A stretch of 64,000 nucleotides of DNA from Escherichia phage LF82-4. A program made the translations under genes and the position numbers. Positions 13,005-53,590 of this stretch are shown here, piece after piece. The number at the start of each line of letters is the position of its first letter. The first letter of the stretch is position 1. Below the pieces are notes generated by a model. It was given only the letters and a program-made list of their open reading frames with translations. It was not told the DNA's origin and ran no database searches. The DNA is taken from the sequence record PV660448; one strand, given 5' to 3'.

Positions 13005-13027
13005 GATGTGGTCATTATAACCACATC
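13005..13027 (-). promoter_or_regulatory. stem-loop with TATAAT in loop (PeSL-like) upstream of 45.2-like gene
   Basis: minus strand GAUGUGGU-UAUAAUG-ACCACAUC, 8 nt before ATG at 12997. Confidence 0.4.
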
Positions 13028-13039
13028 GTGTTAAAGCGT

Positions 13040-14728
13040 TTATGAAACAGTCATTACAGTAAATCGTCCAACTTTACTCATCTGAAGATGTTGTCCATAA
13101 CGTTGAGGGTCATGGTCTCGATGAGAGATAATGAACACGTTAGTATTTTGTAAACTTCCAAGAATGGTATCTATAGCCTTAACAGCTTCAGAATCTACAG
13201 CGCCGTCAAAAACCTCATCAAGAATCAACGTGTTGATTTTAACACCAGAAACTTTTTCAGCAATATCTCGCCATGTAAACAACAATGCGATATCGATACG
13301 TGCCTTTTCACCTTGACTAAATGAAGCATAACTAAAATCTTCACGACCACGTGATTTTATAGATTCATTGAATTCTTCGTCAATAGAAAACACATAATCA
13401 GCTTCCATGATTTTAAGGTAATGGTTAATCTGCTTGTTGAACAGAGGCACATATTTTTTAATGATAGCACCTTTAATACCAGAATCTTTTAACATATCTG
13501 TTATAATACCACGATGGTATTTTTCAAGAACGTTATCCGATTTTGTTTTAATGATTTTATCAAGTTCTTTTTGAAGCAAAGCTATCTCATCGGCATGGTC
13601 GATAAATTCCGCCGAGGCTTGTTCTATTGCAGCTTTAACTTTCTTAGCTTTATCAATAGTGGCAATCATTGCTTGTTTCTTGGTACGAATATCAGATGCA
13701 AGGTCCTGTTTAGTCTTAACATTAGCTCTATATTCGTCCACTAGGACACTCAGATTATCTCTGTGACAGGTAAGTTGCTCGAATGAGTGATTACATTCAT
13801 GAAGCTTATCGGTAATCTTAGAGACAATAGGATCACCCTGGTGCAACTGTGATGCACAAGTAGGACATGTGCCACCGTCATGATACATCTTAATAACTTT
13901 GTTGTATGAGTCGATTTTAGATTTAATCAAGAATGCTTCTTGTCCTATCTTGTTGAATGCCTCAGTAGGGTCTTCATCAAGAACGATATTAAGTAGTCGC
14001 TCATTAGCTTCTTCGATTTCCGCTTTTAATGAACGAGCTTCTTTGGCTAGGTCGTCATACATATTCTGTAGACGCGCTACATTATCACCAGATAATTTCT
14101 TTTGACGTTCGATATTCTCGTTATAAATCTTAATTTGTTGGATAACACCATCTTTCTTAGCATCGAGAACTTGTCCCTGGGAATTAAGTTCTCGAACTTG
14201 AGACTTATTGATTTTATCCATTTCAGCGAGTGTGCCGACTTCTAAAAGGTCTTCGACAAGTTTTCTACGAGCAGGGGTGCTAAGAGCCATGAAAGGGGTA
14301 TACCCTGCCGTCCCAAGCACAACGATCTGTTTAAAAGACGCGTATGACATTCCGATGCTACGTTCAAATTCTTCTTGGAAGTCACGACTGCTGGCAGATT
14401 CATCGAGACGAACACCGTCAACGGAGATTTCGAAAATATTGGGCTTTTGGCCTCGTTTAATGAAGTATTTTTTATCATCGAATTCCATCCAAAGCTCAAC
14501 TAAGAGCTCTTTCTTGTTCGTGCTATTAATGATTTGTCCTTTCTTAACATCACGAAATGGTTTACCGAAAAGTCCGAAAGTAATGGCTTCTAACATCGTA
14601 GATTTACCACCGCCATTTTTACCAGTGATTAATGTCTTTTGGACTTTATCTAATTGGATATCAATAGGATTCCCACCTACCGACATGATGTTTTGATAAC
14701 GAACACGATTTAATTTAAATGATTTCAT
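13040..14728 (-). CDS. 46: recombination nuclease subunit (Rad50/SbcC-like)
   Basis: 562 aa; Walker A GKNGGGKST, zinc hook CPTC, signature/Walker B near C-terminus; T4 synteny. Confidence 0.95.
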   Translation of the reverse strand: MKSFKLNRVRYQNIMSVGGNPIDIQLDKVQKTLITGKNGGGKSTMLEAITFGLFGKPFRDVKKGQIINSTNKKELLVELWMEFDDKKYFIKRGQKPNIFEISVDGVRLDESASSRDFQEEFERSIGMSYASFKQIVVLGTAGYTPFMALSTPARRKLVEDLLEVGTLAEMDKINKSQVRELNSQGQVLDAKKDGVIQQIKIYNENIERQKKLSGDNVARLQNMYDDLAKEARSLKAEIEEANERLLNIVLDEDPTEAFNKIGQEAFLIKSKIDSYNKVIKMYHDGGTCPTCASQLHQGDPIVSKITDKLHECNHSFEQLTCHRDNLSVLVDEYRANVKTKQDLASDIRTKKQAMIATIDKAKKVKAAIEQASAEFIDHADEIALLQKELDKIIKTKSDNVLEKYHRGIITDMLKDSGIKGAIIKKYVPLFNKQINHYLKIMEADYVFSIDEEFNESIKSRGREDFSYASFSQGEKARIDIALLFTWRDIAEKVSGVKINTLILDEVFDGAVDSEAVKAIDTILGSLQNTNVFIISHRDHDPQRYGQHLQMSKVGRFTVMTVS

Positions 14729-14973
14729 ATGTATTCTCTTCGAATGAAGTCCTCTACATATTTTAACATGTCATCCCTATCAGCAAAATATTCATCTAGT
14801 TCTGCATACATAACAACACCTGGTGCGTACTCACAGGTAACATACATTGTTCCAAAGAAACGAGGAGTTGATTCCTCGTAATTCTCAGTCCATTCAACGA
14901 TACCAATATAACCGTCACCAATACTAAATTCGTGACGATGGATTTCATAGTCAGTCTTCGTCATTATACGCAT
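14725..14973 (-). CDS. hypothetical protein (46.1-like)
   Basis: 82 aa, overlaps gene 46 start by 4 nt. Confidence 0.55.
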   Translation of the reverse strand: MRIMTKTDYEIHRHEFSIGDGYIGIVEWTENYEESTPRFFGTMYVTCEYAPGVVMYAELDEYFADRDDMLKYVEDFIRREYI

Positions 14974-15208
14974 CCTCGATACATGCTTCAGCCATTTTAA
15001 GAATAGAGCCAGGAGTATCGTTGTCCATTATATTAAAGCTAAATTCAATAGCCCAGTCGGTACAGACATGAACGGCTTTAACTTCATTGCCTTCAACACG
15101 TAATGGCTCAATCCAATACTTGATAGTGTTCTCGAATCCATCATCATCTTTAACGTCTATTTCAACTTCAAGCCCGAGCCCAGCATTGTTAAATTCATCT
15201 AAAGTCAT
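14951..15208 (-). CDS. hypothetical protein (46.2-like)
   Basis: 85 aa between 47 and 46. Confidence 0.55.
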   Translation of the reverse strand: MTLDEFNNAGLGLEVEIDVKDDDGFENTIKYWIEPLRVEGNEVKAVHVCTDWAIEFSFNIMDNDTPGSILKMAEACIEDAYNDED

Positions 15209-16224
15209 TGTGTTGCCTCAATATAAAGTTCGTTAGAATATTTGACCAGCGCTTCTCTGTCTTCGTCTGAGATATCTGGAATCGCGTCAATATATTCTTT
15301 AATGATATCTTGAAGTGATTTAATCTCGATTTCCTGGTCGTCATCAGATTCAACACTGTTATCAACTTTAGAAACCATACGAAGAGAGTGAACTACTTTT
15401 TCAAGTTCAGATTCAAACTTAGTCAACTCTGAATCAATTTCTGATACTATAACACGTACGGCTAGATTAGTATAATCAGAATAATTAATTTTGCCTTTAA
15501 ACGGATAAGTGATTCGTCGATGCCATGTTGTTTCATTAGGAATAAATTCCATACGTTCAACATCAGTGTCAAATACCCAGAATCCACGTGGGTCGTTCTC
15601 GTCACCTGCAGTAAGGGTCCATGGTGTCCCAATATATTTGACGTTAGCAGCTTCAGAGATTGTGTGGAAGTGGCCAGACCAGACTTGTTTATAGGTCTTT
15701 AAGAAATCAGGTTCAAGCCCATGAGACTTCATTCCTTTATAGAAATAAAAGCCGTTCAGTTCCCAATGACCAACACAATACGCAGCAGAAGAAGTCTTGA
15801 TGTGCTCTAAGATTTCACCTGTATTTTCTTCACACATCCATGGAATTAAATCAATCAGACACCCATCGAAATCAACAGTCGTAGGTTTATCATAAATAAC
15901 AACATTTTTACGATGAGACAAAAGCTCTTGGGTTGTATTAGGGTATAAAGTTGTCTTATAAAAAAGGTCGTGGTTACCCAAAATAGTGTTAACGGTTATT
16001 CCAGCGTTTTCAGCCATATCAAATAATTCACGAGTAAACTCCATACAACGTTGTGTTGTGTGAGCTCGTACATCAAATACGTCCCCGTACTGTATCCATG
16101 TTGTTATTCCATTTTTAACAGAATAATCCACCATTTGTTTGAATCCATGACGTTGGATGTTTTGAATCCACTCATCATCCTTTTTTACACCTAAGTGCAA
16201 ATCGCCTACGTTAAGAATTTTCAT
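15205..16224 (-). CDS. 47: recombination nuclease subunit (Mre11/SbcD-like)
   Basis: 339 aa from ATG at 16224 (MKILNVGDLHLG...), AAGGTG RBS; phosphoesterase motifs GDLH, GNHD, GHWH. Confidence 0.93.
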   Translation of the reverse strand: MKILNVGDLHLGVKKDDEWIQNIQRHGFKQMVDYSVKNGITTWIQYGDVFDVRAHTTQRCMEFTRELFDMAENAGITVNTILGNHDLFYKTTLYPNTTQELLSHRKNVVIYDKPTTVDFDGCLIDLIPWMCEENTGEILEHIKTSSAAYCVGHWELNGFYFYKGMKSHGLEPDFLKTYKQVWSGHFHTISEAANVKYIGTPWTLTAGDENDPRGFWVFDTDVERMEFIPNETTWHRRITYPFKGKINYSDYTNLAVRVIVSEIDSELTKFESELEKVVHSLRMVSKVDNSVESDDDQEIEIKSLQDIIKEYIDAIPDISDEDREALVKYSNELYIEATQ

Positions 16225-17038
16225 ATTGCACCTTAAATTTACCATAAATTATACTGTGATAACTTAAATCAGGAAAACCTTCTGCGACGGCTAAAGGTCT
16301 AAACTTCTTAGGACTTATTCTACCACATTTTACCCAAAGAGCATATAGTGCTTCATAATATTCAAATAATGGTCCTTTACGAGCTTCAGAAACAGCTTTA
16401 CGCACTTTGTCCTTTATTGACGGGTCTAAATTTCTAAGGGTTTCACTAATTTTGTTTCGATGGGTTTCATTAATAAGATTTCCTTTAAGCCAGCCTTCGG
16501 GTTCAGTCCCTGGGACAAACATTTTCTTTTCTTTGCCATTATTATACCATTTGCGGCCTTTATTGTGACTAGAGGCTTTATATTCAGGAGAACGACCTTT
16601 TACATTACCTTCAGGTATATAAGGTAGAAAACTTTGTTCTAACGTTTCAGGGTTGTATGAGTGTATATGGCCTTTACCATTATGTGAGCCGTACAATGGG
16701 TGCTCTTCTTTTGGAAGTGATAATCCGAAAAATCCTTTAGGAGCAGCAATTGCTTTATTCATATACATCGGGTTATTGGCAGCATCCACCTTTAGTTGGA
16801 GTAAACGTTCAGCTTTTGTCGCTTCTTCTCTCGTGGCGTGTTCACTTACAATACATGAATCAAAAAGGTGTGGATTCATTTTTAGTTCAGAATTGTAAAT
16901 TTCCTTATATGCTTTTGATAAAACCGTTCCGTGATATCCAGCTTTATGCTTTGCAATACTTGTAGAACCTATATAAAACGGTGGAAGTTTGTCACCATCA
17001 TAAATCGTAAAATATACTATGTACATGTTATTCTCCAT
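16211..17038 (-). CDS. GIY-YIG homing endonuclease (Seg-like), free-standing
   Basis: 275 aa; GIY-YIG variant YIVYF...FYIGST, conserved R/E/N, NUMOD3-like HNKGRKWYNNG repeat; 3' end overlaps gene 47 start by 14 nt; locus where T4 has alpha-gt. Confidence 0.8.
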   Translation of the reverse strand: MENNMYIVYFTIYDGDKLPPFYIGSTSIAKHKAGYHGTVLSKAYKEIYNSELKMNPHLFDSCIVSEHATREEATKAERLLQLKVDAANNPMYMNKAIAAPKGFFGLSLPKEEHPLYGSHNGKGHIHSYNPETLEQSFLPYIPEGNVKGRSPEYKASSHNKGRKWYNNGKEKKMFVPGTEPEGWLKGNLINETHRNKISETLRNLDPSIKDKVRKAVSEARKGPLFEYYEALYALWVKCGRISPKKFRPLAVAEGFPDLSYHSIIYGKFKVQYENS

Positions 17039-17053
17039 TTTGTATAGAAATTA

Positions 17054-17082
17054 CTATATCATAGTTTATACTGTTTGTAAAC
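17054..17082 (-). promoter_or_regulatory. early-type promoter (GTTTAC -35, TATAGT-like -10) just upstream of the homing endonuclease gene
   Basis: minus strand GTTTAC...GATATAGT, ending 8-15 nt before ATG at 17038; no obvious RBS in the resulting leader. Confidence 0.35.
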
Positions 17083-17096
17083 CCTAGAAACGGAAA

Positions 17097-17116
17097 AGGA
17101 ACTCCGAAGAGTTCCT
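17097..17116 (-). terminator. hairpin with UUCG loop followed by U-rich tract
   Basis: minus strand AGGAACUC-UUCG-GAGUUCCU then UUUCC. Confidence 0.4.
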
Positions 17117-18608: not shown

Positions 18609-18612
18609 TTCA

Positions 18613-18646
18613 TAGGTCTATTATATCATAATATTTAGAGACCTAT
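18613..18646 (-). promoter_or_regulatory. promoter-early stem-loop (8-bp inverted repeat ATAGGTCT/AGACCTAT enclosing TATAAT) upstream of gene 55
   Basis: read directly; ends about 5 nt upstream of gene 55 ATG region. Confidence 0.4.
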
Positions 18647-18662
18647 CTTAAAGCACGAGATA

Positions 18663-19503: not shown

Positions 19504-19548
19504 TTTATTATCCAACGAGAGCATTATACTCTGCTCTCAAGAGTTTGT
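19504..19548 (-). repeat. 45-bp promoter cassette, copy A (identical to 49445-49489)
   Basis: tttattatccaacgagagcattatactctgctctcaagagtttgt; contains 7-bp inverted repeat GAGAGCA/TGCTCTC around TATAAT. Confidence 0.8.
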
Positions 19549-19551
19549 GCG

Positions 19552-19791
19552 TTATTTCGTGATAAGATAATGTAAATAGTTTGCTTGACGAACACTGATA
19601 TCAACACCCATATCAAAGATACCTTTATAGAACGGGTATTTGTTTTCAGTAGAATCTAGACTAAAAGCCTTTCCGCCACAACTAACGGTAATAGCATCAG
19701 TTAAAGTGTCATATACAAACTTAATAGTTGAGCCGTTCACTACAACTTCAAGACGTTTTTTCGATGTAATAATGTCTAATTCTTGTTCCAT
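19552..19791 (-). CDS. hypothetical protein (79 aa)
   Basis: track ORF. Confidence 0.55.
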   Translation of the reverse strand: MEQELDIITSKKRLEVVVNGSTIKFVYDTLTDAITVSCGGKAFSLDSTENKYPFYKGIFDMGVDISVRQANYLHYLITK

Positions 19792-20914: not shown

Positions 20915-21064
20915 TTTGTTTTCCTCTATAGCAGATGGTTTAATCTTAACATATCTATCGAGGATGTAAACTGTTTTATGAAAATATTTTTGATTTGAGA
21001 GGGGCACAAGGAGATAGTGAAGTGAAGATTCCAATGGATTATATTAGAAATGAGATAAAGAAGA

Positions 21065-25232: not shown

Positions 25233-25403
25233 TCAATATTCTCTATAAAAGTTACGATGAGAACGTTTAGCTTTGCGAAGCTGACGTTTAGTAGGACGAA
25301 CTGTAAATAGTTGTCCAGAGAAAAAATTCGAATCGGTTTTAATAAGCAAATACCAATCATGCTTGCCATTTTTTAATAAACGGTACAATAATTTAACTTG
25401 CAT
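25233..25403 (-). CDS. small basic protein (56 aa)
   Basis: ATG at 25403 with GGAAGAG RBS; track start is TTG. Confidence 0.35.
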   Translation of the reverse strand: MQVKLLYRLLKNGKHDWYLLIKTDSNFFSGQLFTVRPTKRQLRKAKRSHRNFYREY

Positions 25404-25531
25404 AATAATCTCTTCCCATTTCCATATCAATTAATTCATTTATTGAAGGTTCATCATAACATGGTTCTTCGTCGTTGTAAACCGTTTCGACGTCTGGCTC
25501 GACAGTCTCCCATCGAGCAGAATACCACGGT

Positions 25532-25867
25532 TTAACCCCGGAGTTTATTGAGCTCTTCATAATCAATCCAGGATTCTAGCCCTGACGGCAGGTCACATTC
25601 AATGTTCCACAGAAGCTCTTCAATGGCTTGCAGGCGATTATATTCTTCAACAGTAATAGTAACCATTGTTTCAGGCTTTTTAACCATCATGTCATTCATC
25701 AGAATGTACAGATCTTCACAAACAGCCGGGTCGTCCCATGTCCATATTTCAGCATCTCGAACCAATGAAGTCGGAATAGAATTTAAAACTTCAAGCTTAG
25801 TAGGAGCGTCAGGACCGAGAAGAGTTGCTACAAATTTATATGCTTTGGCGAAATCAATATCGTTCAT
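25532..25867 (-). CDS. hypothetical protein (111 aa)
   Basis: track ORF. Confidence 0.55.
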   Translation of the reverse strand: MNDIDFAKAYKFVATLLGPDAPTKLEVLNSIPTSLVRDAEIWTWDDPAVCEDLYILMNDMMVKKPETMVTITVEEYNRLQAIEELLWNIECDLPSGLESWIDYEELNKLRG

Positions 25868-25885
25868 TTAAAATATTCTCGCAGT

Positions 25886-26182
25886 TTATTGTTCTACCCA
25901 GGCACAGGAAACTTCGAAATCAGGACCACCGTATTCCCAGTGATATTCACCAACAGGAATCCAGTCACCGTGCTCGTTTTCTTCGTAGTCTTCAGGTTCA
26001 AGACCAACGAATCGCCATTGAACACCTATGATTCGATTACCCATTAATATACGAAATTCACCCCATGGATTATCGATAGCATATTGGATATCGTTCTTAG
26101 CACGAGAACACATTTCTTGATATAACAAAGCTTCTAATTCGCCCTGATCATAAGGGCCCGGGAAAGTTAAATCAATACTCAT
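25886..26182 (-). CDS. hypothetical protein (98 aa)
   Basis: 4-nt overlap with nrdC. Confidence 0.55.
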   Translation of the reverse strand: MSIDLTFPGPYDQGELEALLYQEMCSRAKNDIQYAIDNPWGEFRILMGNRIIGVQWRFVGLEPEDYEENEHGDWIPVGEYHWEYGGPDFEVSCAWVEQ

Positions 26183-26442
26183 TTAAAATATTCTCGCAGT
26201 TGGTCAAATCCACCAATATGACTTCCATCAGGAGCAAATACTTGAGGCATAGTCAATCCAACTTGTGATTCACGTCCTAGTTTATTCAGAAGCTCGTCAA
26301 TTTTTTCTTCATCAAATACACCTTTCTCTGGCATAACATTAATGAATTCGAATGGCTGTTTCTTAACAGTCAGCAATCGTTTCGCATTATCACAATAAAT
26401 GCATTTATGAATAGTAGAGTCATACCCGTACACTTTAAACAT
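26179..26442 (-). CDS. nrdC: glutaredoxin/thioredoxin (NrdC)
   Basis: 87 aa from ATG 26442 (MFKVYGYDSTIHKCIYCDNAKRLL...); CIYC redox motif; matches T4 NrdC as recalled. Confidence 0.9.
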   Translation of the reverse strand: MFKVYGYDSTIHKCIYCDNAKRLLTVKKQPFEFINVMPEKGVFDEEKIDELLNKLGRESQVGLTMPQVFAPDGSHIGGFDQLREYFK

Positions 26443-28103: not shown

Positions 28104-28126
28104 AATATTTTCCTCTCGTTAAGATA

Positions 28127-28161
28127 GATTTATTATACTCCAACCATCCTTGGTTGTAAAC
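28127..28161 (-). promoter_or_regulatory. early promoter cassette (GTTTAC -35, 18-nt spacer with CAACC/GGTTG inverted repeat, TATAAT -10), copy 1
   Basis: minus strand GTTTACAACCAAGGATGGTTGGAGTATAATAAAT; 32-bp core identical to 29147-29181. Confidence 0.6.
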
Positions 28162-29125: not shown

Positions 29126-29146
29126 TTTATATTCCTCATGTTGAAA

Positions 29147-29181
29147 AATTTATTATACTCCAACCATCCTTGGTTGTACAT
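29147..29181 (-). promoter_or_regulatory. early promoter cassette, copy 2 (-35 variant TGTACA)
   Basis: atttattatactccaaccatccttggttgta shared with copy 1. Confidence 0.6.
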
Positions 29182-30785: not shown

Positions 30786-30822
30786 ATAGGTCTATAATAA
30801 CACAACCATAGACCTTGTAAAC
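30786..30822 (-). promoter_or_regulatory. promoter-early stem-loop, family ttgataggtctataataaca
   Basis: GTTTAC -35; inverted repeat AGGTCTAT/ATAGACCT around TATTAT. Confidence 0.5.
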
Positions 30823-31112: not shown

Positions 31113-31250
31113 AACATATCCTCTTTGATTTGTACATCATTATTTTTAAATATTTCTATGCCCTCAGTAGGTTCCTGGTGTCCTTCTTTGAGGTAAGCCA
31201 TATGATTATTCATCTTTATGGCTTTTGTTACCTCAGGACTTCCTGTAAGC

Positions 31251-32261: not shown

Positions 32262-32299
32262 GATAGGTCTATAATAACATATCCTAAAAACATGTACAC
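32262..32299 (-). promoter_or_regulatory. promoter-early stem-loop, family ttgataggtctataataaca (GTGTAC -35 variant)
   Basis: 20-bp core identical to 30784-30803. Confidence 0.45.
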
Positions 32300-32329
32300 T
32301 ACTTTTTAAAAATATTTTGACCCCCTAAA

Positions 32330-32343
32330 GGGCCCGAAGGCCC
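32330..32343 (-). terminator. GC hairpin with UUCG loop after 329-aa gene
   Basis: minus strand GGGCC-UUCG-GGCCC followed by UUUAGGGGG; 3 nt after stop. Confidence 0.4.
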
Positions 32344-34640: not shown

Positions 34641-34659
34641 TTTGTTCTCCGTTCGTTTT

Positions 34660-34698
34660 GGTAGGACTACTATAACATAGTCCTACCAAGATGTAAAC
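34660..34698 (-). promoter_or_regulatory. promoter-early stem-loop, family taggactactataacatagtcct
   Basis: GTTTAC -35; 9-bp inverted repeat GTAGGACTA/TAGTCCTAC around TATAGT-like -10. Confidence 0.5.
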
Positions 34699-35095: not shown

Positions 35096-35147
35096 TTCTC
35101 CTCTAGTAAGTAAGGTCTACTATAACACAACCTGAGGAGAAGTAAAC
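35096..35147 (-). promoter_or_regulatory. promoter-early stem-loop with SD in 3' arm (8-bp inverted repeat TTCTCCTC/GAGGAGAA flanking TATAGT)
   Basis: minus strand GTTTAC TTCTCCTCAGGTTGTGT TATAGT ...CTAGAGGAGAACGTT ATG. Confidence 0.55.
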
Positions 35148-35155: not shown

Positions 35156-35186
35156 GCAAAAAAGCCCCAACCTTTCGGAAGGGGCT
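35156..35186 (-). terminator. intrinsic terminator, copy 1 of 3 identical hairpins
   Basis: minus strand AGCCCCUUCCGAAAGGUUGGGGCU followed by UUUUUUG; 5 nt after stop of 35191-35748. Confidence 0.6.
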
Positions 35187-35780: not shown

Positions 35781-35809
35781 CAAAAAGCCCCAACCTTTCG
35801 GAAGGGGCT
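35781..35809 (-). terminator. intrinsic terminator, copy 2 of 3 identical hairpins
   Basis: same 24-bp hairpin plus U-tract, 7 nt after rI stop. Confidence 0.6.
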
Positions 35810-35815
35810 AGTAAA

Positions 35816-38884: not shown

Positions 38885-39343
38885 CTAGATTTTAATCACT
38901 GCTTTAGAAGCTTTTCCTGGTAGTCGTTTACTGTTAATAATAGCCATTCTGCATTGAAGAGTCTTCATTTTGAATGCTGGATTTTCGCGACAAACTGTAA
39001 GTCCTAACCAAAGATTTCCATCAGTTATTTCTAAACGGCCTGGGCGATATTCGACACCTTCGACAAAATCTTCATCAACATCTGGACGTGCCGGCATTGA
39101 TAAAAATTCTGCAACTTCTTTAGCATGATTTTTTACTTTATGAAATAATTCAAAAACGTAATTCTCATCTATTTCTCTCTGGATGGCACGATCTAAGAGA
39201 TGTTGAGAATACTTGATATGAAAGCCTGGTAGTCCAAGAGACTTTGCAGCATCTTTTATACCGGCATTTATTTTGCGGAACTCCGTTTCAAAGATTCGAC
39301 GGAGTTTATTACGGCGGATAAAAACTTCCGAATTGATAGTCAT
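38885..39343 (-). CDS. regB: endoribonuclease RegB
   Basis: 152 aa from ATG 39343 (MTINSEVFIRRNKLRR...); matches T4 RegB as recalled; track start is TTG. Confidence 0.85.
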   Translation of the reverse strand: MTINSEVFIRRNKLRRIFETEFRKINAGIKDAAKSLGLPGFHIKYSQHLLDRAIQREIDENYVFELFHKVKNHAKEVAEFLSMPARPDVDEDFVEGVEYRPGRLEITDGNLWLGLTVCRENPAFKMKTLQCRMAIINSKRLPGKASKAVIKI

Positions 39344-39350
39344 TTTGATT

Positions 39351-39400
39351 TCTCCTCTAGTTGACAAGTCTATAGTAACACAACTAGAGGAGAAGTAAAC
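39351..39400 (-). promoter_or_regulatory. promoter-early stem-loop with SD in 3' arm (10-bp inverted repeat TCTCCTCTAG/CTAGAGGAGA) upstream of regB
   Basis: minus strand GTTTAC TTCTCCTCTAGTTGTGT TACTAT ...CTAGAGGAGAAATCAAA ATG. Confidence 0.55.
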
Positions 39401-40856: not shown

Positions 40857-41392
40857 TGCATTCCAATCACAAAAAATTGAGGACGAGCATTACCGCCGAT
40901 GCAATATTTGCTTTTGCAACAGTGTTGGACTGTTTTAATATGGACATTGTAAATCTTATCCATATCAGGAGCTTTAATAGGCTCGTCAATTATGTACAGA
41001 ATACGAGAAAGCGTTAATCCACGGAATTTAGAACCTTCATTGCCAATAAAACTACGGACAGAATCGGTAAATAAACGGAATCGAATATCATCGCTAGAAT
41101 AACGAGAAAATTCTTTTTTAATGTTGCCAGCAGAAATTTTAGCATAGGCTGAAGTATTAGAAAGAACAATAACTGTTCCACCATCATACAGCCAATTAGC
41201 AGCAAAGTTAGTCACAGCAATTGATTTACCTGATTGTCGGCCGCCGTCTAAACGAAGTGTACAGTACTGCTTGAGTACGTCTTCAAACGGTGGGATATAA
41301 CCGTTCTTACAAATTTCTTCTACTCTAGCATCAGAATGGTGTGTAAAAGCATTCATCAGGGATAGATAAGGTCCAGTTAAAAATGTTCTCAT
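40853..41392 (-). CDS. hypothetical protein (179 aa) with P-loop-like GGRQSGKS
   Basis: ATG start; Walker-A-like motif. Confidence 0.55.
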   Translation of the reverse strand: MRTFLTGPYLSLMNAFTHHSDARVEEICKNGYIPPFEDVLKQYCTLRLDGGRQSGKSIAVTNFAANWLYDGGTVIVLSNTSAYAKISAGNIKKEFSRYSSDDIRFRLFTDSVRSFIGNEGSKFRGLTLSRILYIIDEPIKAPDMDKIYNVHIKTVQHCCKSKYCIGGNARPQFFVIGMQ

Positions 41393-41452: not shown

Positions 41453-41503
41453 CCCCTCTAAGTAATTATGAATATACTATCACAATTCTAGGAGAAAGTA
41501 AAC
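41453..41503 (-). promoter_or_regulatory. promoter-early stem-loop with SD-like 3' arm
   Basis: minus strand GTTTAC TTTCTCCTAGAATTGTG ATAGTA ...CTTAGAGGGG. Confidence 0.4.
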
Positions 41504-41505: not shown

Positions 41506-41808
41506 TTATTTACCTTTAATTACTTTAGCTGCTTCGATAGCCGCTTGCTGAAGGTCATCCATAGACATACCGAATTTAGAAGCAAAGTTATCAATTTTCT
41601 TTTCGACAGCATTCAAAGGCTTGGCCTGTTTACCTTCATTAGCGCCAGGAAGAGCGAGAATACGCTCTTTGTCAATATAAAGGCTTACAAGTTTCTTACG
41701 GTCTTTATCGGACAAATCATGAAATGAATGGGCCTTTTTATTTATAGCGGCTTCTAATTTACCTGCACTCACTCGCGCTTCAGTAATAAATTCTTGATAT
41801 GTTTTCAT
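41506..41808 (-). CDS. internal head protein (capsid-targeting sequence)
   Basis: N-terminus MKTYQEFITEARV... = T4 IP capsid-targeting signal. Confidence 0.75.
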   Translation of the reverse strand: MKTYQEFITEARVSAGKLEAAINKKAHSFHDLSDKDRKKLVSLYIDKERILALPGANEGKQAKPLNAVEKKIDNFASKFGMSMDDLQQAAIEAAKVIKGK

Positions 41809-41839
41809 TTTTTGTTTCCTTGTTTGTTTTGATAGAGTA

Positions 41840-41869
41840 ATTATACCATATTAATACTTAAGCGTAAAC
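41840..41869 (-). promoter_or_regulatory. early promoter (GTTTAC -35, TATAAT -10)
   Basis: minus strand GTTTACGCTTAAGTATTAATATGGTATAAT; upstream of IP gene 41506-41808. Confidence 0.5.
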
Positions 41870-41872: not shown

Positions 41873-42133
41873 TTAAGCTTTACCGCCAGAAATAATTCCG
41901 AAGTTGTTAAAATCGTATCCAATATCGTCAACATCTACTTTAGGATTTACTACAACATAAGCAATTTCACTACGTTTTGCATAGGTGTTGATTTCTTTAC
42001 CATCGCCACCTAAGAAAGAATACCCATTACGTTTTAATGAGCCAAAGTCTTCGGCATCACCAATGAAAGCTTTAACTTTAAATTTAGGACCTTTGGCATC
42101 TGCTTCAATGATAAATTCTTGATACATTTTCAT
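41873..42133 (-). CDS. internal head protein (capsid-targeting sequence)
   Basis: N-terminus MKMYQEFIIEADAKG. Confidence 0.7.
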   Translation of the reverse strand: MKMYQEFIIEADAKGPKFKVKAFIGDAEDFGSLKRNGYSFLGGDGKEINTYAKRSEIAYVVVNPKVDVDDIGYDFNNFGIISGGKA

Positions 42134-42139: not shown

Positions 42140-42553
42140 TTAGTAAATTGATTTACCATAGTATTTGTACCAAGTAGGACGTTGAGCAATTTTTTCATCT
42201 AAGCGTGCTTGACTTATCGCAACGGACGCTTCGGACGGGACATAATTATTACGAAATTCGGCAGGGATGTCGGAAATATCCTGGACTGTCGTGTCCTTGA
42301 TTTTGAAACCACGTTTCAAGCATTCAGCGATTAGCTCGATTTGTCGTAAACGTAAAAATTCAAGTTTGTCGTAAAAGAATGTTACGTGACCTGTGCCTAA
42401 GATAAATGTTGGAGAGATTTTAAAATCCTTTACACGTTTACCGTTTTGGACATGTTTACGGACTGCACTAAATACGCGTGGTAATTCACGATACTCAGCC
42501 ATAAGATGTTGATCGGTCAGTTCAGAAACAAGTGTTAAATTGATACGAGTCAT
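42140..42553 (-). CDS. denV: endonuclease V (pyrimidine dimer DNA glycosylase)
   Basis: 137 aa from ATG 42553 ([28 protein letters not shown]...); matches T4 DenV as recalled. Confidence 0.93.
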
Positions 42554-42556: not shown

Positions 42557-42610
42557 TTCCTCCAAGTAGTTGATGAATGTATAGTATCAAAACCCTTGGA
42601 GGAAGTAAAC
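42557..42610 (-). promoter_or_regulatory. promoter-early stem-loop with SD in 3' arm (10-bp inverted repeat TTCCTCCAAG/CTTGGAGGAA) upstream of denV
   Basis: minus strand GTTTAC TTCCTCCAAGGGTTTTG ATACTATA ...CTTGGAGGAAATT ATG. Confidence 0.55.
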
Positions 42611-42611: not shown

Positions 42612-42893
42612 CTATTTTTCTGAAGCGCCTGAAATATATTTTTCAAGACGTTGTTTCATCAGCGAGCCGTTCTTAGCGATTTCTTCCGGTTTATCGCACA
42701 TACGTAACAAGGCTTCAAGCTTAGCGATATCGCTGGTACGTTCAAATTTGCGAGTATCTATCTTACTAGCAAGTTCAGAAATACGTGCTAATAGACTTTC
42801 GGCTTCAACCAAAGCTGCACCTAGCTTAGTTGCAAATGTGTCAGTAGCTTCGTTAAGAATAGATTCTGATAAAAATTCACTATATGTTTTCAT
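42612..42893 (-). CDS. internal head protein (capsid-targeting sequence)
   Basis: ATG at 42893 gives [13 protein letters not shown]...; overlaps e stop (ATGA). Confidence 0.7.
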
Positions 42894-44097: not shown

Positions 44098-44492
44098 CTC
44101 AAATTCCTACATTCGGTAATAAAACGTTCAACTTCATTATTCTTGGCCTTTATCTTGTCTTTACGTTCCTGTAAACTACTTTTAACAAGATTAATAATGA
44201 TGCCTATAGTACCTCCACCAATAATACCACCAATAATACTTACGATAGTAGATGCTAATAATATAGCGATAATATCTGGTATGGCAAAGGCACTTACTTT
44301 AGTACTAAAAAACCATACCGACGGTACAAATATAATCCATCCTGTTATCCATTGGCACTTATTGAAAAACTTTTCAAGCTCAGCTTGAGTTGTTCTTATT
44401 ACTTCATCGATAGGTTGATATCCATTAATGTATCTGTTCACGATAATACCTGCTGGCTGGTCGATTTTAAATTCTTGACAAATACGTTTCAC
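44094..44492 (-). CDS. membrane protein (132 aa)
   Basis: two TM helices incl. glycine-zipper IIGGIIGGGTIGIII. Confidence 0.55.
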   Translation of the reverse strand: MKRICQEFKIDQPAGIIVNRYINGYQPIDEVIRTTQAELEKFFNKCQWITGWIIFVPSVWFFSTKVSAFAIPDIIAILLASTIVSIIGGIIGGGTIGIIINLVKSSLQERKDKIKAKNNEVERFITECRNLR

Positions 44493-44573
44493 TAAGTAGG
44501 ATGGACATCCTGTCCAATCTACTGAATAGTACGAAATACCTTCATTACTTAGACCAATATGTTTTGTTAATCA

Positions 44574-45588: not shown

Positions 45589-45626
45589 ATAGGACTACTA
45601 TAACATAGTCCTATAATTGTGTAAAC
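45589..45626 (-). promoter_or_regulatory. promoter-early stem-loop, family taggactactataacatagtcct
   Basis: GTTTAC -35; inverted repeat ATAGGACT/AGTCCTAT. Confidence 0.5.
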
Positions 45627-46872: not shown

Positions 46873-46880
46873 TTAATTTG

Positions 46881-46918
46881 ATAGGACTACTATAACATAG
46901 CCCTATCTTGTTGTAAAC
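46881..46918 (-). promoter_or_regulatory. promoter-early stem-loop, family taggactactataacatagtcct (one arm mismatch)
   Basis: GTTTAC -35; gataggactactataacatagccctatc. Confidence 0.45.
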
Positions 46919-47717: not shown

Positions 47718-47776
47718 TTTCTACATTCCTTAATAAAGTTTTCGATTGTTTCATTTTCACGTTTAGCTAGGAGTTC

Positions 47777-47806
47777 ATTATAACTAATCATTTGAGAAGC
47801 GTAAAC
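47777..47806 (-). promoter_or_regulatory. early promoter (GTTTAC -35, TATAAT -10)
   Basis: minus strand GTTTACGCTTCTCAAATGATTAGTTATAAT. Confidence 0.5.
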
Positions 47807-48802: not shown

Positions 48803-48820
48803 GGAGGACCGGAGTCCTCC
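48803..48820 (-). terminator. hairpin (7-bp GC-rich stem) followed by UUUUGG
   Basis: minus strand GGAGGAC-UCCG-GUCCUCC UUUUGG, after stop at 48829. Confidence 0.5.
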
Positions 48821-49444: not shown

Positions 49445-49489
49445 TTTATTATCCAACGAGAGCATTATACTCTGCTCTCAAGAGTTTGT
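49445..49489 (-). repeat. 45-bp promoter cassette, copy B (identical to 19504-19548)
   Basis: minus strand TTTACA -35 ... TATAAT -10 embedded in GAGAGCA/TGCTCTC stem-loop. Confidence 0.8.
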
Positions 49490-49492
49490 AAA

Positions 49493-49720
49493 TTATTTTT
49501 TAATCAAATTGACATAAAACTTGGCATCTTCGGGGTGCATGCCTTCGCAGTATTCTTCAACCATGAACTTCTTAACAGCTTCATAAGGACCACTCAGATT
49601 AAGCTCAGTTGTCCAGAACTTGGAATCTTGTACTGAATCGATACGAACTTCAGGGTGACGGTTGCGAATAACTTCTTCTGTGTATTCATAATCAACGACA
49701 TCAATACTAACTTTAGCCAT
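49493..49720 (-). CDS. hypothetical protein (75 aa)
   Basis: track ORF; GAGGAAAA RBS. Confidence 0.55.
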   Translation of the reverse strand: MAKVSIDVVDYEYTEEVIRNRHPEVRIDSVQDSKFWTTELNLSGPYEAVKKFMVEEYCEGMHPEDAKFYVNLIKK

Positions 49721-49766
49721 TTTGTTTTCCTCTTGATTTGATGTGATTACTATAACATAAACTTAC

Positions 49767-49931
49767 TTAGATGTAAACTATTTCAACATCACCTTTAGCT
49801 GCTTTATAACCTTCGGCCCAAGATACAACAGAGTTTTTATCTGAGGATTCAAATTCAGGCATTGGACTTTCACCAATATTCACACAGTATGTTTCTTCAT
49901 TTTCATCGAACCAAATAATTAAAGTAGTCAT
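49767..49931 (-). CDS. small acidic protein (54 aa), not in ORF track
   Basis: ATG at 49931 with GGAG RBS; fills 280-nt gap. Confidence 0.35.
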   Translation of the reverse strand: MTTLIIWFDENEETYCVNIGESPMPEFESSDKNSVVSWAEGYKAAKGDVEIVYI

Positions 49932-49950
49932 TTTGTTTACTCCACTGTAG

Positions 49951-49990
49951 TTGATAAGTCTATAGTATCACCATCCTTGGTGCTTGTACA
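49951..49990 (-). promoter_or_regulatory. promoter-early stem-loop, family ttgataagtctatagtatca
   Basis: TGTACA -35, CCAAGGATGG spacer motif, TACTAT -10. Confidence 0.45.
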
Positions 49991-49999
49991 TCATTATTT

Positions 50000-50305
50000 T
50001 TAATTTTTCCAACTTAACAACTTGTAGTGTCCTTCATTCGTACGAGGTTTATCCCAATAGATATTAATAAACGATGTCTCACCAATAGAAGTCGGCGGTT
50101 TTTTCTCTACAGTAAGACCTTCGCTTTCTAACCACTCAATGACTTTTGTAGATAAAGCTAAAGAAACATGTAATGGACAACGACAGTATTTTTCACCTTT
50201 AGCTGAAGACTCGTACATCATTTCTAAAATACGTTTTTGCACTTTTTTAAAAATAGTTTCAGCAGATTCTTCAGATTTTTTATTCAGTTCAGTGTAAAGA
50301 CTCAT
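50000..50305 (-). CDS. hypothetical protein (101 aa)
   Basis: track ORF with ATG. Confidence 0.55.
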   Translation of the reverse strand: MSLYTELNKKSEESAETIFKKVQKRILEMMYESSAKGEKYCRCPLHVSLALSTKVIEWLESEGLTVEKKPPTSIGETSFINIYWDKPRTNEGHYKLLSWKN

Positions 50306-50322
50306 AATATTCTCCTCTGCGG

Positions 50323-50362
50323 TTGATAAGTCTATAGTATCATGTCCTTAGAAGAAGTAAAC
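50323..50362 (-). promoter_or_regulatory. promoter-early stem-loop, family ttgataagtctatagtatca
   Basis: GTTTAC -35; 20-bp core identical to 49951-49970. Confidence 0.45.
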
Positions 50363-50392: not shown

Positions 50393-50421
50393 CAAAAAGC
50401 CCCAACCTTTCGGAAGGGGCT
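50393..50421 (-). terminator. intrinsic terminator, copy 3 of 3 identical hairpins
   Basis: same 24-bp hairpin AGCCCCUUCCGAAAGGUUGGGGCU plus U-tract. Confidence 0.55.
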
Positions 50422-50462: not shown

Positions 50463-50554
50463 AAGTGTTTGTACGAAACGCCGGGATTCGAACCCGGTTA
50501 TTAAGCAGTTGACGCTACTCAATATTTTTAAAAGGCCATATCTCGACCATATCC
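50463..50554 (-). ncRNA. tRNA-like structured RNA candidate (acceptor stem plus canonical T-arm, non-canonical interior)
   Basis: minus strand 7-bp acceptor pairing CGGAACG/CGUUUCG and T-arm CCGGG-UUCGAAU-CCCGG; no canonical D/anticodon arms found by hand; lies in 330-nt ORF-free gap. Confidence 0.3.
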
Positions 50555-50732
50555 GAACGTTCCGTCAAAAACGCTACTCGGCTTACGGCAAAGATATTTC
50601 CTCGAATCGATAATTCTGTGCGCCGTTTCTGCTGTGATGTAAGGGGATATTAACGAATCATAAAGATTTATTAAGACCAGTCCTTACTCAGGGAACATCA
50701 GTCCGACGACTTACCGGTAGCGACCCGGCTTC

Positions 50733-51077
50733 TTATTTTGGCATATCATCAATTTGCTCTCGACGCCGACGCCATAGATTAATCGCTTCATAAACACATT
50801 CAGCATTTGGTATATGGCGACAATAGTATAGTGATTCGCGTTTCTGGAACCGATGTTGCAATGGGATTTCGTTTAAAAGGTCTTTACGGTCAAAGTATTC
50901 AAAACTAGTTAACCCGGAACGGTTTTTAAGAAACTTCCAATGGCCAAATTCATTTTGGAAATAAACGTAATCAGCGTGTTGATATAATGAATTAATCAAC
51001 CGGTCGGAAATAACTGTATCCTGTTCGTTAAAATAAAACGTTAAATCATGAACTACCAGATAAATATTGCCTTTCAT
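50733..51077 (-). CDS. hypothetical protein (114 aa)
   Basis: ATG start; 8 nt after HEG stop. Confidence 0.55.
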   Translation of the reverse strand: MKGNIYLVVHDLTFYFNEQDTVISDRLINSLYQHADYVYFQNEFGHWKFLKNRSGLTSFEYFDRKDLLNEIPLQHRFQKRESLYYCRHIPNAECVYEAINLWRRRREQIDDMPK

Positions 51078-51084: not shown

Positions 51085-51753
51085 TCACTTAAATTTTAGT
51101 TTATAGCCTTTAATCCAACCTTCCGGAATAGGATCGGTTTTCTTAATTTTCTTAGATTTCTTTTCTTCTAATGAATGAATCCACATAGTACCAAACTGGG
51201 AATTTTTCTCGCCTTGTTGGTGTTTGTTCCTGGCGTGGGTATCTTTCATTTTAGCAATAGTTTCGGAAGTATGATTTTTATTTAAAAACGACTTAGTGCT
51301 AGAGAATTTTTCTCTGTATTCAGGTAAAGTCCACAGATGCTTTAATTTCTCTGAACCCATTTTACGATATTTTTCTTGAAGCACTTCATCAGAATCAAAT
51401 CTCTCTTTAAAAGCTTTGGCTCCTTTAATAGAGGCTTCTTTCTTTTTATAATTAAATTCGTAAGTATTTAAATGGTCCCAACCACCTTCGCCACCAAGTT
51501 TTAAATTATATACGTCAGAACGATTCAAAAATTCTTCGTTTACGATATTTTTCTCGGCTTCAAACATCTGCTCTTTAGTGTCAAAGAATTCTAAAATTTC
51601 TTTATTAAAATTTTCTATACCATACTTGTCTTGGGCTCTTTTTAATAATTTACCAGAACCCATATATCCATCATCTAAATTTTCGGTAGAATGAGCGCCT
51701 ATATAGATTTTATTATTAATTTTATTTGTTATTTTATAAGTGTAATGGAACAT
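51085..51753 (-). CDS. GIY-YIG homing endonuclease (SegB-like) in tRNA region
   Basis: 222 aa; GIY-YIG YTYKITNKINNKIYIGAH, NUMOD3-like repeats KNHTSETIAKMK and GEKNSQFGTMW. Confidence 0.8.
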   Translation of the reverse strand: MFHYTYKITNKINNKIYIGAHSTENLDDGYMGSGKLLKRAQDKYGIENFNKEILEFFDTKEQMFEAEKNIVNEEFLNRSDVYNLKLGGEGGWDHLNTYEFNYKKKEASIKGAKAFKERFDSDEVLQEKYRKMGSEKLKHLWTLPEYREKFSSTKSFLNKNHTSETIAKMKDTHARNKHQQGEKNSQFGTMWIHSLEEKKSKKIKKTDPIPEGWIKGYKLKFK

Positions 51754-51794: not shown

Positions 51795-51866
51795 TGGCCC
51801 TGGCTGGTTTCGATCCAGCTACCTATCAGTTATGAGCTGACAGCTCTCCCATTGAGCTACAGGGCC
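51795..51866 (-). tRNA. tRNA with anticodon CAU (Met or Ile2-type)
   Basis: 72 nt cloverleaf folded by hand: acceptor GGCCCUG/CAGGGCC, D-arm GCUC/GAGC, anticodon stem GUCAG/CUGAU with loop CUCAUAA, T-arm GCUGG/CCAGC; no encoded CCA. Confidence 0.8.
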
Positions 51867-52611: not shown

Positions 52612-52797
52612 TTACTCACCTTTTGCAATTTTATCCATAACGATAGCGATTAAGCCGATTAGAAATGCTACTACCAATGAGATAGAATTTTCTGTTGTTG
52701 TCAGTAGTCCACAAATGAATCCTACAAACATCGAAAAACTAAAAGCCATTGAAGCAATTACTACAGCAACATTACGAATCAGTTCAGCGCGTTTCAT
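52612..52797 (-). CDS. small membrane protein (61 aa)
   Basis: two hydrophobic helices. Confidence 0.5.
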   Translation of the reverse strand: MKRAELIRNVAVVIASMAFSFSMFVGFICGLLTTTENSISLVVAFLIGLIAIVMDKIAKGE

Positions 52798-52816: not shown

Positions 52817-52855
52817 GATAGGGTAATAGTATCACTACCCTATCTAAAAGTAAAC
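52817..52855 (-). promoter_or_regulatory. promoter-early stem-loop (9-bp inverted repeat GATAGGGTA/TACCCTATC)
   Basis: GTTTAC -35 at 52850-52855. Confidence 0.5.
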
Positions 52856-52866: not shown

Positions 52867-53175
52867 CTATTTTATTCCGCGTGATGCAATCGTATTCTGC
52901 CGTTTAACACCAGTTTGTTTAAAGTCATGACTGTCGATTTGATCGGTGCGAGCAACTCCGAATGATGATTTAATCTTAGCTTTAGATCCTTTAGTTATAG
53001 AAATAAACATCTCGGAAGACCCTTTCTTAAAGTCTGATGCAGATACTTCAACACCGTTCTTAGCAAGTGACCTCAGAATTGCATCCGCGTACTCATCATC
53101 AAGACTCGCTTGAGTATTAATAACAAATGTCTTTGGTGCAGCCGCTTCATTGATAAATTCTTTATAGGTTTTCAT
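52867..53175 (-). CDS. internal head protein (capsid-targeting sequence)
   Basis: N-terminus MKTYKEFINEAAAP. Confidence 0.7.
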   Translation of the reverse strand: MKTYKEFINEAAAPKTFVINTQASLDDEYADAILRSLAKNGVEVSASDFKKGSSEMFISITKGSKAKIKSSFGVARTDQIDSHDFKQTGVKRQNTIASRGIK

Positions 53176-53197
53176 TTTATTTTCCTAATTAATTTTG

Positions 53198-53235
53198 ATA
53201 GGACTACTATAACATAGTCCTATTAGCATGTAAAC
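53198..53235 (-). promoter_or_regulatory. promoter-early stem-loop, family taggactactataacatagtcct
   Basis: GTTTAC -35; inverted repeat ATAGGACT/AGTCCTAT. Confidence 0.5.
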
Positions 53236-53238
53236 TAC

Positions 53239-53526
53239 TTACAGAAGGGTTTTTGCAATAATTTTAAGCTGAGCTACAGAAATATGCTTAGCTTTAAACA
53301 GTGCAGTCTCTTCAGCCGGAGAGATAACAATAGTAGCGCCATCTTTCTTAGCAGACCATCCATCCCCTAAGTAAACAGTACCTTTTACTTCTTCGCCATC
53401 AACCAGACTAATCATTGGTTTACCCTCACGTCCTTTATTTGCTTTAATAACTTCGGAAGTAAGGGTCGCTTCGGTCAGAGTAGAAACGTTAGCATCAGGT
53501 GATATAAATTCTTTATAGGTTTTCAT
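53239..53526 (-). CDS. internal head protein (capsid-targeting sequence)
   Basis: N-terminus MKTYKEFISPDANV. Confidence 0.7.
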   Translation of the reverse strand: MKTYKEFISPDANVSTLTEATLTSEVIKANKGREGKPMISLVDGEEVKGTVYLGDGWSAKKDGATIVISPAEETALFKAKHISVAQLKIIAKTLL

Positions 53527-53554
53527 TTTATTTCCTTGAGGTTGTTTATTTTAT

Positions 53555-53590
53555 AGGATGATAGTAACACACCATCATCCTTATGTAAAC
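53555..53590 (-). promoter_or_regulatory. promoter-early stem-loop (8-bp inverted repeat AGGATGAT/ATCATCCT)
   Basis: GTTTAC -35 at 53585-53590. Confidence 0.5.

Follow-up and report, generated by a model that had tools for sequence, protein, structure and literature searches.

Candidate RNA hairpins and recombination patches at the T-even-type early promoter cassettes of Escherichia phage LF82-4

In T4-type phages, promoter early stem-loop (PeSL) elements have been defined as an early promoter with an AT-rich upstream region and a stem-loop in one of several positions, including over the -10, followed by a Shine-Dalgarno sequence (SD) and an ATG; they are enriched in hyperplastic regions, and sit at indels between close relatives (PMC2839356, PMC4122927). 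A further trait attributed to the type is excision as mini-circles that carry one hybrid cassette. The SD of the T4 genes e, soc, 49 and I-TevI is paired with an upstream arm in long transcripts, and a proximal promoter initiates within the structure, so that only its own transcripts are translated (Uzan and Miller 2010, PMC3014915). Besides these genes, that review lists the logic only for some genes of homing endonucleases, in each case with late promoters; it includes neither regB nor denV among its cases, and its regB section names no hairpin (PMC3014915). Here we describe a family of early promoters on the minus strand of a 64,000-nucleotide stretch of Escherichia phage LF82-4 (PV660448; the whole stretch is called the window), together with the hairpins found at most of them, the covariation of the hairpin arms and the chimeric promoter junctions seen among relatives. 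We read these elements as T-even-type early promoter cassettes, that is, PeSL elements, whose hairpins would act at the RNA level and whose shared cores would act as recombination patches; we give this reading a probability of roughly 0.78.

The window belongs to a Mosigvirus (RB69 group, T4 family). Between 30 and 36 kb it is 100% identical to Escherichia phage LF82-1, and outside this segment it has 91–98% identity to RB69-group phages. The gene order is T4-like (43, regA, 62, 44, 45, 46, 47, 55, nrdG/D, 49, nrdC.x, tk, vs, regB, internal proteins, denV, e, tRNA region, ipI, 57, 1, 3), and every gene up to 57.0 kb is carried by the minus strand. The window was compared by chained BLAST alignments with six relatives: LF82-1, RB69, p000v, TH12, ECO111 and HX01. 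For family-level tests, 142 promoter families (<80% identity) were pooled from the window, these six genomes and T4-like IMG/VR loci. A pattern scan of IMG/VR for GTTTACA...TGTTATAGT returned mostly unrelated contigs, with at least 3 promoter matches in 15 of 120 loci.

Promoters were located with a matrix of two blocks (UP element plus GTTTAC; TGn plus -10) separated by a 16–18 nt spacer, which was seeded with 20 intergenic sites and run on both strands; the threshold of 12.8 bits was the top score in 20 shuffled windows. The scan gave 23 sites above threshold on the minus strand and 0 on the plus strand, in line with the original prediction of at least 20 intergenic GTTTAC-type promoters on that strand. 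Intergenic DNA makes up only ~8% of the region, yet it holds 21 of the 23 sites. Three of the sites (20971, 25482 and 41503; sites are named by their higher coordinate) were not among the seeds. All 23 lie within 17.0–53.6 kb, with none in the replication genes at 1–17 kb or past 54 kb. A scan with the generic sigma-70 consensus gave 66 sites against 63.9 in shuffles, which is not above chance, indicating that the signal is specific to the T4 early-promoter form; significance is reached with the T4-specific model only. At 13005-13038, the first site of the original prediction, the promoter is of the MotA-box middle type, also with an inverted repeat, and does not belong to the GTTTAC early promoters. 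The class tallies given below refer to 24 sites, namely these 23 and site 19552, which has a weak -35, scores below threshold and was tracked separately.

The cassettes have a compact build, consisting of an A-rich UP element, GTTTAC, a 17-nt spacer, TGn with TAYWRT, a leader of 20–24 nt, a GGAG-type SD and ATG. Early promoters precede 6 of 14 genes in 27–35.2 kb and 14 of 34 in 39–54 kb (~40%); the claim that they flank almost every gene there was overstated. The 12 predicted core occurrences are all present. A 29-mer core recurs four times (34658, 45586, 46878 and 53195), with no more than 2 mismatches, where shuffles give an expectation of 0; the 45-bp pair at 19504 and 49445 is exact, the 20-mers at 49951 and 50323 are identical, the 34-mers at 28127 and 29147 differ by 2 mismatches, and CCAAGGATGG has three minus-strand copies. 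In an independent repeat search of 13–57 kb the cassettes formed the largest direct-repeat families, followed by the N-terminal repeat of the internal-protein genes and by one terminator.

When applied to T4 (38–78 kb), the same matrix found 16 sense and 0 antisense sites, lying upstream of regB, denV, ipI, ipII/III, nrdC.x and others; the same architectures are seen at the orthologous T4 genes ipI, trna.4, regB, denV and nrdC.8. Early promoters have been predicted for RB69 (Nolan 2006, PMC1524935), and 24 of the 26 in the corresponding 42–77 kb coincide with matrix sites at a constant offset. The T4 RefSeq record annotates no promoter features, and a literature search found no T4 start-site maps. 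Judged by their T4 orthologues, the cassettes would be strong early promoters for host sigma70. The promoter features, compact layout and intergenic position, together with the hairpins beyond shuffles and the indel breakpoints described below, support the predicted PeSL identity.

Table 1. Predicted early promoter cassettes and related elements of the window. Paired arms are separated by a slash.
Feature	Position (strand)	Arms or motif	Context
Early promoter cassette, class I	53554..53590 (-)	AGGATGATGGT/ACTATCATCCT around -10	-35 53584-53590, -10 53561-53566; upstream of internal-protein gene 53239-53526
Early promoter cassette, class I	53198..53235 (-)	ATAGGACTAT/GTAGTCCTAT	Upstream of internal-protein gene 52867-53175
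Early promoter cassette, class I	52817..52855 (-)	GATAGGGTAGTG/TATTACCCTATC	Upstream of trna.4 homologue 52612-52797
Early promoter cassette, weak class II	50308..50362 (-)	Spacer CTTCTTC pairs with SD GAGGAG	Terminator upstream, 50395-50421
Early promoter cassette, class III	49946..49991 (-)	CACCAaggaTGGTG hairpin within spacer	
Early promoter, no convincing hairpin	49742..49778 (-)		-35 in final codons of upstream open reading frame (ORF)
Early promoter cassette, class I	49457..49493 (-)	TGAGAGCA/TGCTCTCG	Member of exact 45-bp pair
Early promoter, no hairpin	47770..47806 (-)		RB69 and HX01: 250-bp insertion abutting 5' edge of GTTTAC
Early promoter cassette, class I	46880..46918 (-)	GATAGGGCTAT/GTAGTCCTATC	G-U pair on sense strand
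Early promoter cassette, class I	45589..45626 (-)	ATAGGACTAT/GTAGTCCTAT	ECO111: 664-bp insertion at upstream edge
Early promoter cassette, class II	42557..42610 (-)	Spacer anti-SD arm TTCCTCCAAG pairs with CTTGGAGGAA	3' arm is the SD of denV (42140-42553)
Early promoter, no hairpin	41833..41869 (-)		Upstream of internal-protein gene 41506-41808
Early promoter cassette, weak class I	41464..41503 (-)	AATTGTGA/TCATAATT	Homologous to T4 cassette upstream of ipIII
Early promoter cassette, class II	39350..39400 (-)	TTCTCCTCTAGTTG pairs with CAACTAGAGGAGAA (14 bp)	3' arm is the SD of regB (38885-39343)
Early promoter cassette, class II	35096..35147 (-)	TTCTCCTC/GAGGAGAA	Terminator upstream, 35160-35186
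Early promoter cassette, class I	34658..34698 (-)	TTGGTAGGACTAT/GTAGTCCTACCAA, 13 bp, -20.6 kcal/mol	
Early promoter, degenerate 5' arm	32264..32299 (-)		Chimera of two RB69 cassettes flanking RB69ORF102c; terminator upstream, 32328-32345
Early promoter cassette, class I	30787..30822 (-)	AGGTCTATGGT/ATTATAGACCT	Upstream of nrdC.8 homologue
Early promoter cassette, class III	29145..29181 (-)	CAACCAaggaTGGTTG	Upstream partner in p000v deletion
Early promoter cassette, class III	28125..28161 (-)	CAACCAaggaTGGTTG	Downstream partner in p000v deletion
Candidate early promoter, no hairpin	25446..25482 (-)		Inside ORF 25393-25560
Early promoter cassette, weak class II	20922..20971 (-)	TCCTC/GAGGA	Terminator ~90 nt upstream
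Class I cassette, degenerate -35	19516..19552 (-)		Other member of exact 45-bp pair
Early promoter, no hairpin	17046..17082 (-)		Terminator upstream, 17094-17115; insertion breakpoint at 17050-17094
Intrinsic terminator, copy 1 of 3	35160..35186 (-)	GCCCCTTCCGAAAGGTTGGGGCTTTTT	
Same terminator, copy 2 of 3	35783..35809 (-)		With copy 1 brackets gene 35191-35748
Same terminator, copy 3 of 3	50395..50421 (-)		Marks insertion junction in relatives
MotA-box middle promoter (CGCTTTA)	13005..13038 (-)	TATAAT flanked by GATGTGGT/ACCACATC	
MotA-box middle promoter	18612..18655 (-)	ATAGGTCT/AGACCTAT around -10 region	
Half cassette	31130..31154 (-)	Only UP element and ATGTACA -35 left	92% identical to 49984-50008; intergenic stretch variable among relatives
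Internal-protein N-terminal targeting peptide repeat, 1 of 5	41779..41808 (-)	MKTYxEF	Others 42104-42133, 42864-42893, 53146-53175, 53497-53526

Each site was folded from the -35 to +40, and ungapped stems were also searched. A hairpin of some kind is found at 18 of the 24 sites; the -10 lies inside or between inverted-repeat arms, as had been predicted for at least 20 sites, at 15, while three have a hairpin internal to the spacer and six have no convincing hairpin. In class I (10 sites) the 5' arm, in the spacer, pairs with a 3' arm that runs from the end of the -10 to about +3, leaving TGn-TATAGT in the loop; the stems are 8–13 bp long, with energies of -12.6 to -20.6 kcal/mol as RNA, and the hairpin sits ~15 nt past the upstream stop codon. 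Class II (42610, 39400, 35147, 50362 and 20971) features an anti-SD (TTCTCCTC, TTCCTCC) right after GTTTAC, which pairs with the SD of the downstream gene in a helix that spans the entire promoter. Class III (three sites) has a 5–6 bp hairpin (CAACCAaggaTGGTTG) wholly within the spacer. A search of the cassettes against Rfam gave no match. In class I the predicted start falls within the 3' arm or past it, and in class II it is downstream of the 5' arm, so that the hairpins can form only in RNA arriving from upstream; since all genes over ~57 kb are co-oriented, each cassette is also transcribed through from upstream. Nearly all cassettes, with or without a 5' arm, carry CCTATCAA(C/A) just 3' of the -10, at about -5 to +6. 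The 3' arm seems to be anchored on this conserved start-site region, with the freely variable spacer providing the complement.

It could be argued that the stem-loops are terminators or attenuators of upstream transcription, the role first proposed for PeSLs; each cassette would then join a terminator to a promoter and isolate every gene transcriptionally. The hairpins lie between genes and form stable RNA structures, and a GC-rich PeSL stem-loop of phage RB49 lowered lacZ expression to a degree similar to that of a strong terminator (Arbiol 2010, PMC2839356). The true terminators of the window, however, are separate elements with GC-rich stems and UUCG-type loops, located upstream of five cassettes and elsewhere; five of the seven that were folded have 5–6 T in the tail, including those at 17094-17115, 35160-35186, 37960-37978 and 48803-48820. 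Class I stems are AT-rich (31–44% GC) and are followed by an A-rich tail with 0–2 T in 8 nt. A terminator scan called no class I hairpin, the GC-rich stem plus U-tract of a Rho-independent terminator is absent from hairpins of all three classes, and the pairing of class II arms with the SD points to translation, not termination. A separate terminator precedes 0 of 10 class I cassettes and 5 of the 14 others (P 0.053), a distribution that fits the terminator explanation and weakly suggests that class I hairpins and separate terminators are alternative insulators. On balance we consider termination an unlikely role, although a serious one. In the PeSL reading with RNA-level hairpins, the stable, U-tract-free class I hairpin would most likely insulate the message that ends upstream of it, through attenuation of read-through or through a block to 3' exonucleases once RegB or RNase E has cut.

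Several lines of evidence suggest selection on the pairing itself. Over the 142 families, the fold z-score against dinucleotide shuffles has a mean of -1.63 (P about 1e-16), with z < -2 in 35%. A single pairing register, centred on the first two -10 bases, recurs in 14 families with several unrelated arm sequences. At the 34698 site, one position forms the series G-C, G-U and A-U in the window, RB69 and ECO111, respectively, the route that compensatory change usually takes. Relatives of the trna.4 homologue, considered for class I covariation within a single orthologous cassette, were few and close. A view in which the hairpins are functionless, the promoters having been copied by gene conversion with the palindromes as passengers, would account for the lineage-specific families (ATAGGACTAT arms recur in Mosigvirus cassettes and are absent from the T4 region examined) and for two cassettes 30 kb apart that are identical over 45 bp. 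It is improbable in the face of hairpins strongly enriched over independent families, of the base-pair series at 34698 and of the orthologous regB and denV cassettes, which keep pairing with different sequences in distant phages.

Alternatively, the inverted repeats could act as double-stranded DNA, as operators of a dimeric phage protein (for example in early-promoter shut-off) or as cruciforms that tune promoter strength or draw in endonuclease VII. In favour of this, the palindromes have the -10 at their centre, T4 early-promoter shut-off has been described as incompletely understood in its mechanism (Uzan and Miller 2010, PMC3014915), and cruciform cutting could account for recombination at the cassettes. 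A single sequence-specific protein is unlikely, as arm sequences vary between families with complementarity kept, and registers vary as well. G-U pairs occur on the sense strand, and after composition control the sense strand folds better than the antisense strand (paired P 0.0095; 142 families), which gives modest support to a role at the RNA level. Class II arms pair with an SD 40 nt away, for which there is no logic at the DNA level. We therefore rate an action as DNA lower still, as a slim possibility.

The class II hairpins appear to affect access to the SD. At four sites the SD has a predicted unpaired probability of 0.10–0.21 in read-through RNA and 0.40–0.70 in the cassette's own transcript; a comparable drop is not seen consistently where the hairpin is of class I or absent. 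An anti-SD 4-mer occurs within the first 11 nt of the spacer more often than the background predicts, both at the window sites (5 of 24 against a background of 4.1%, P 0.0026) and at the family level (15 of 142, P 0.0008). The arm being in the spacer, the predicted +1 of the window sites lies at least 20 nt downstream of it. The internal promoters are of the GTTTAC early type, not the late type (TATAAATA, gp55).

Upstream of regB, in phages whose RegB is 56–97% identical, GTTTAC, the anti-SD arm, the -10 and the SD arm are kept in all, while the distal stem varies on both sides (CUAGUUG/CAACUAG, CUUGACUG/CAGUUAAG, CUUUAUG/CAUAAAG, UGUAAG/CUUACA). With the arms anchored by script on CUCC/GGAG, 86% of positions are paired, against 42–52% when the partner is slid by 1–3 nt, and six positions show 2–4 pair types. 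RNAalifold on a MAFFT alignment of the regB leaders, in which the arms are misaligned, recovered just the 7-bp anti-SD/SD core. Upstream of denV, at least 8 different arm pairs occur in about 30 distinct T4-like contigs; every one of them sequesters the SD, and the predicted start is at the 5' arm or downstream of it. The anti-SD/SD hairpins of regB and denV are conserved across distant T4-like phages, where compensatory changes are seen. In two of the more distant phages (loci L143 and L144; RegB 56% identical) the regB cassette, ~60 nt 5' of the gene, nests both hairpin types: the class I one (GGGCCAUGAUACUAUGGCCC), GC-rich and around the -10, is enclosed by a short anti-SD/SD helix.

In this mechanism the anti-SD in the spacer would mask the SD of the next gene in read-through RNA, and regB, denV and others would be translated only from RNA begun at their own early promoter. 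It is a tentative proposal, which we hold at somewhat less than even odds, that early-promoter anti-SD hairpins form a general conserved T-even device making genes of the regB/denV type translatable only in this way. If it is true, early-promoter shut-off at 2–3 min would also stop translation of regB and denV, though read-through RNA persists, and at regB the GGAG that is cut by RegB itself would be shielded in the longer read-through RNAs. Conserved, covarying, SD-sequestering hairpins around the early promoters of regB and denV might be the part of this analysis that specialists would not expect.

The repeated cores are associated with gene content. Between the window and the six relatives there are 61 distinct breakpoints (indels or replacements of at least 30 bp), of which 16 fall inside 76-bp cassette intervals; 2.6 would be expected there if breakpoints were placed uniformly (no more than 11 in any of 2000 trials), and 8.9 if they were placed in gene-boundary zones only (P about 0.009). 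Another ten are no more than 40 bp away from a cassette, and several of these fall in terminators or where a targeting-peptide repeat ends; replacement breakpoints are found at the ends of these repeats in the internal-protein genes. Two events unambiguously produced chimeric cassettes with the crossover inside a shared core. Phage p000v is without gene 28166-29125 and has in its place a single cassette composed of the 5' part of 29181 and the 3' part of 28161, the crossover falling within the 29-bp core common to both. RB69 and ECO111 have an extra ORF (RB69ORF102c) flanked by two cassettes, and the 32299 cassette of the window consists of the 5' part of the one upstream of ORF102c and the 3' part of the downstream one, with the crossover in their shared 24-bp -10/discriminator core. 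The direction of each event is inferred. With these two chimeras and the breakpoints in cassettes, the suggested gene shuffling through the repeats is borne out. Independently of any role of the hairpins, the shared cassette cores of 25–45 bp would serve as short homology patches, and so would the terminator repeat and the 5' end that the internal-protein genes have in common; phage recombination at such patches would add, delete or swap the intervening genes.

The repeated terminator gives an example. Two copies of the 27-bp terminator enclose gene 35191-35748 (DUF7338), which has a TATAAATA late promoter of its own, and in four of the six relatives (RB69, p000v, TH12 and HX01) the gene is missing and one copy of the terminator is left; crossover between the terminator repeats accounts for this presence and absence. 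At the copy at 50395-50421 there is a 711-bp insertion in LF82-1, p000v, TH12 and HX01, and a larger one in RB69. In the window (35783-35830) and in locus L001 (about 40965-41005), the terminator GCCCCTTCCGAAAGGTTGGGGCTTTTT stands directly before a late-promoter-like TATAAATA and a gene, which suggests that terminator, late promoter and gene form a portable module inserted at different sites in different relatives.

An origin of the repeated cores by tandem duplication of genes together with their promoters, as five neighbouring nrdC.x ORFs of about 320 aa (316–331 aa; four behind an early cassette, two of these with near-identical cores, and one behind a MotA-type middle promoter) might suggest, is refuted at the sequence level and thus highly improbable, because the proteins encoded 3' of core-sharing cassettes have no mutual blastp match below 1e-3 and belong to different Pfam families or none.

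Some observations weigh against the PeSL reading with RNA-level hairpins, or limit it. Six of the 24 promoters are hairpin-free, and the hairpin is therefore not required for a promoter. Promoter activity and start sites are deduced from homology, and the specific role of the class I hairpins, which are without a U-tract, is a putative one. Gene conversion between paralogous cassettes can alter both arms together and thereby mimic a compensatory mutation; the 45-bp identity of the 19552 and 49493 cassettes looks like a product of this process, as the RB69 arm pair at the first locus differs. G-U and A-C mismatches number 6 and 2, which are too few events for this strand test. Finally, BLAST ends tend to halt at conserved islands, which inflates the association of breakpoints with cassettes; the boundary-restricted test is moderately significant.

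Not all joints in the window are cassettes. Gene 25886-26182, which is missing from RB69 and ECO111, is flanked by an exact 23-bp direct repeat (25864-25886 and 26179-26201) that takes in both an SD and a stop/start overlap (TAAATGA); this joint is neither promoter nor terminator. Between gene 47 and the 17082 promoter, the segment 15899-17093 holds an ORF of 271 aa (16211-17026, no Pfam match); it measures 1195 bp in the window, five relatives have a shorter, unrelated stretch of 374 bp there, and TH12 differs over a longer span, and its right breakpoint is the end of the terminator T-run or the promoter start. A GIY-YIG homing endonuclease gene (segB-like, 51085-51753) indicates that some indels have causes other than cassettes. 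It adjoins tRNA-Met (51795-51866), and the tRNA-Arg of LF82-1, RB69 and others is missing here; p000v has the same arrangement. At 44451-44549, within the e.2 region and away from any cassette, identity to LF82-1 changes from 99.8% to 94.2%; this is a mosaic junction from ordinary homologous exchange. Homologues of the T4 small stable RNAs rnaC (50472-50610, minus strand; 98.6% identity to T4, far above the neighbouring DNA) and rnaD (50618-50733, minus strand; 86% identity) occupy most of a 427-bp 'intergenic' gap; Rfam has no family for either.

PeSLs had not been catalogued in the RB69 group before, and the window now provides a quantified example, in a large virulent phage, of regulatory cassettes as linkers for modular gene exchange. 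It also splits the PeSL label into three: hairpins around the -10, SD-sequestering hairpins and true terminators. For the engineering or annotation of T4-like therapeutic phages, cassette positions would predict sites of accessory-gene insertion or loss, as well as genes that need their own promoter for translation.

Compared with the described systems, the cassettes resemble the PeSLs of RB49 and phi1 (Arbiol 2010, PMC2839356) in joining an early promoter to a stem-loop of varying position (including the -10), an SD and an ATG, in lying in hyperplastic regions upstream of small ORFs, and in their association with indels between relatives and with recombination between neighbouring cassettes. 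The RB49 elements differ in having near-perfect TTGACA...TATAAT promoters and G(n)-loop-C(n) stems, of which one acted as a terminator when placed in a reporter, whereas the window cassettes have a GTTTAC -35 and AT-rich stems of unrelated arm sequences without a U-tract. The PeSLs of PST and T4 and the PeSL/PmSL elements of nt-1 and KVP40 (Comeau 2014, PMC4122927) share the form TTTACW N17 TAYWAT, half elements, middle-promoter versions and the association with insertion, deletion and replacement; the half cassette and the two middle-promoter versions of the window (31130-31154, 13005-13038 and 18612-18655) have their parallels there (PMC4122927). The PST figures place the stem-loops immediately 5' of the promoter, an arrangement seen in only five window cassettes, as separate GC-rich terminators, while most of the window hairpins surround the -10 or reach the SD. 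The RB69 early promoters predicted by Nolan (2006, PMC1524935) occupy orthologous positions; that text does not contain 'inverted repeat' or 'palindrom', and the promoters are not treated there as recombination joints. Class II shares the logic of the T4 e, soc, 49 and I-TevI cases, in that, going by the predicted starts, only transcripts from the proximal promoter would be translated; there, late (gp55) promoters delay translation, whereas in class II an early promoter would tie it to the first minutes of infection. Conserved promoter/hairpin elements at T-even internal-protein loci (Repoila 1994, as summarised in Arbiol 2010, PMC2839356) appear in that summary as 'PeSL-like' kin. The corresponding loci of the window (41.4–42.9 and 52.8–53.6 kb) have class I cassettes, a shared N-terminal coding repeat and replacement breakpoints at both; unlike the 1994 elements as summarised there, the window cassettes reach well beyond internal-protein loci. 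By their architecture, the window elements appear closest to the T-even form of PeSL (PST/T4), together with the 'PeSL-like' elements of the internal-protein loci.

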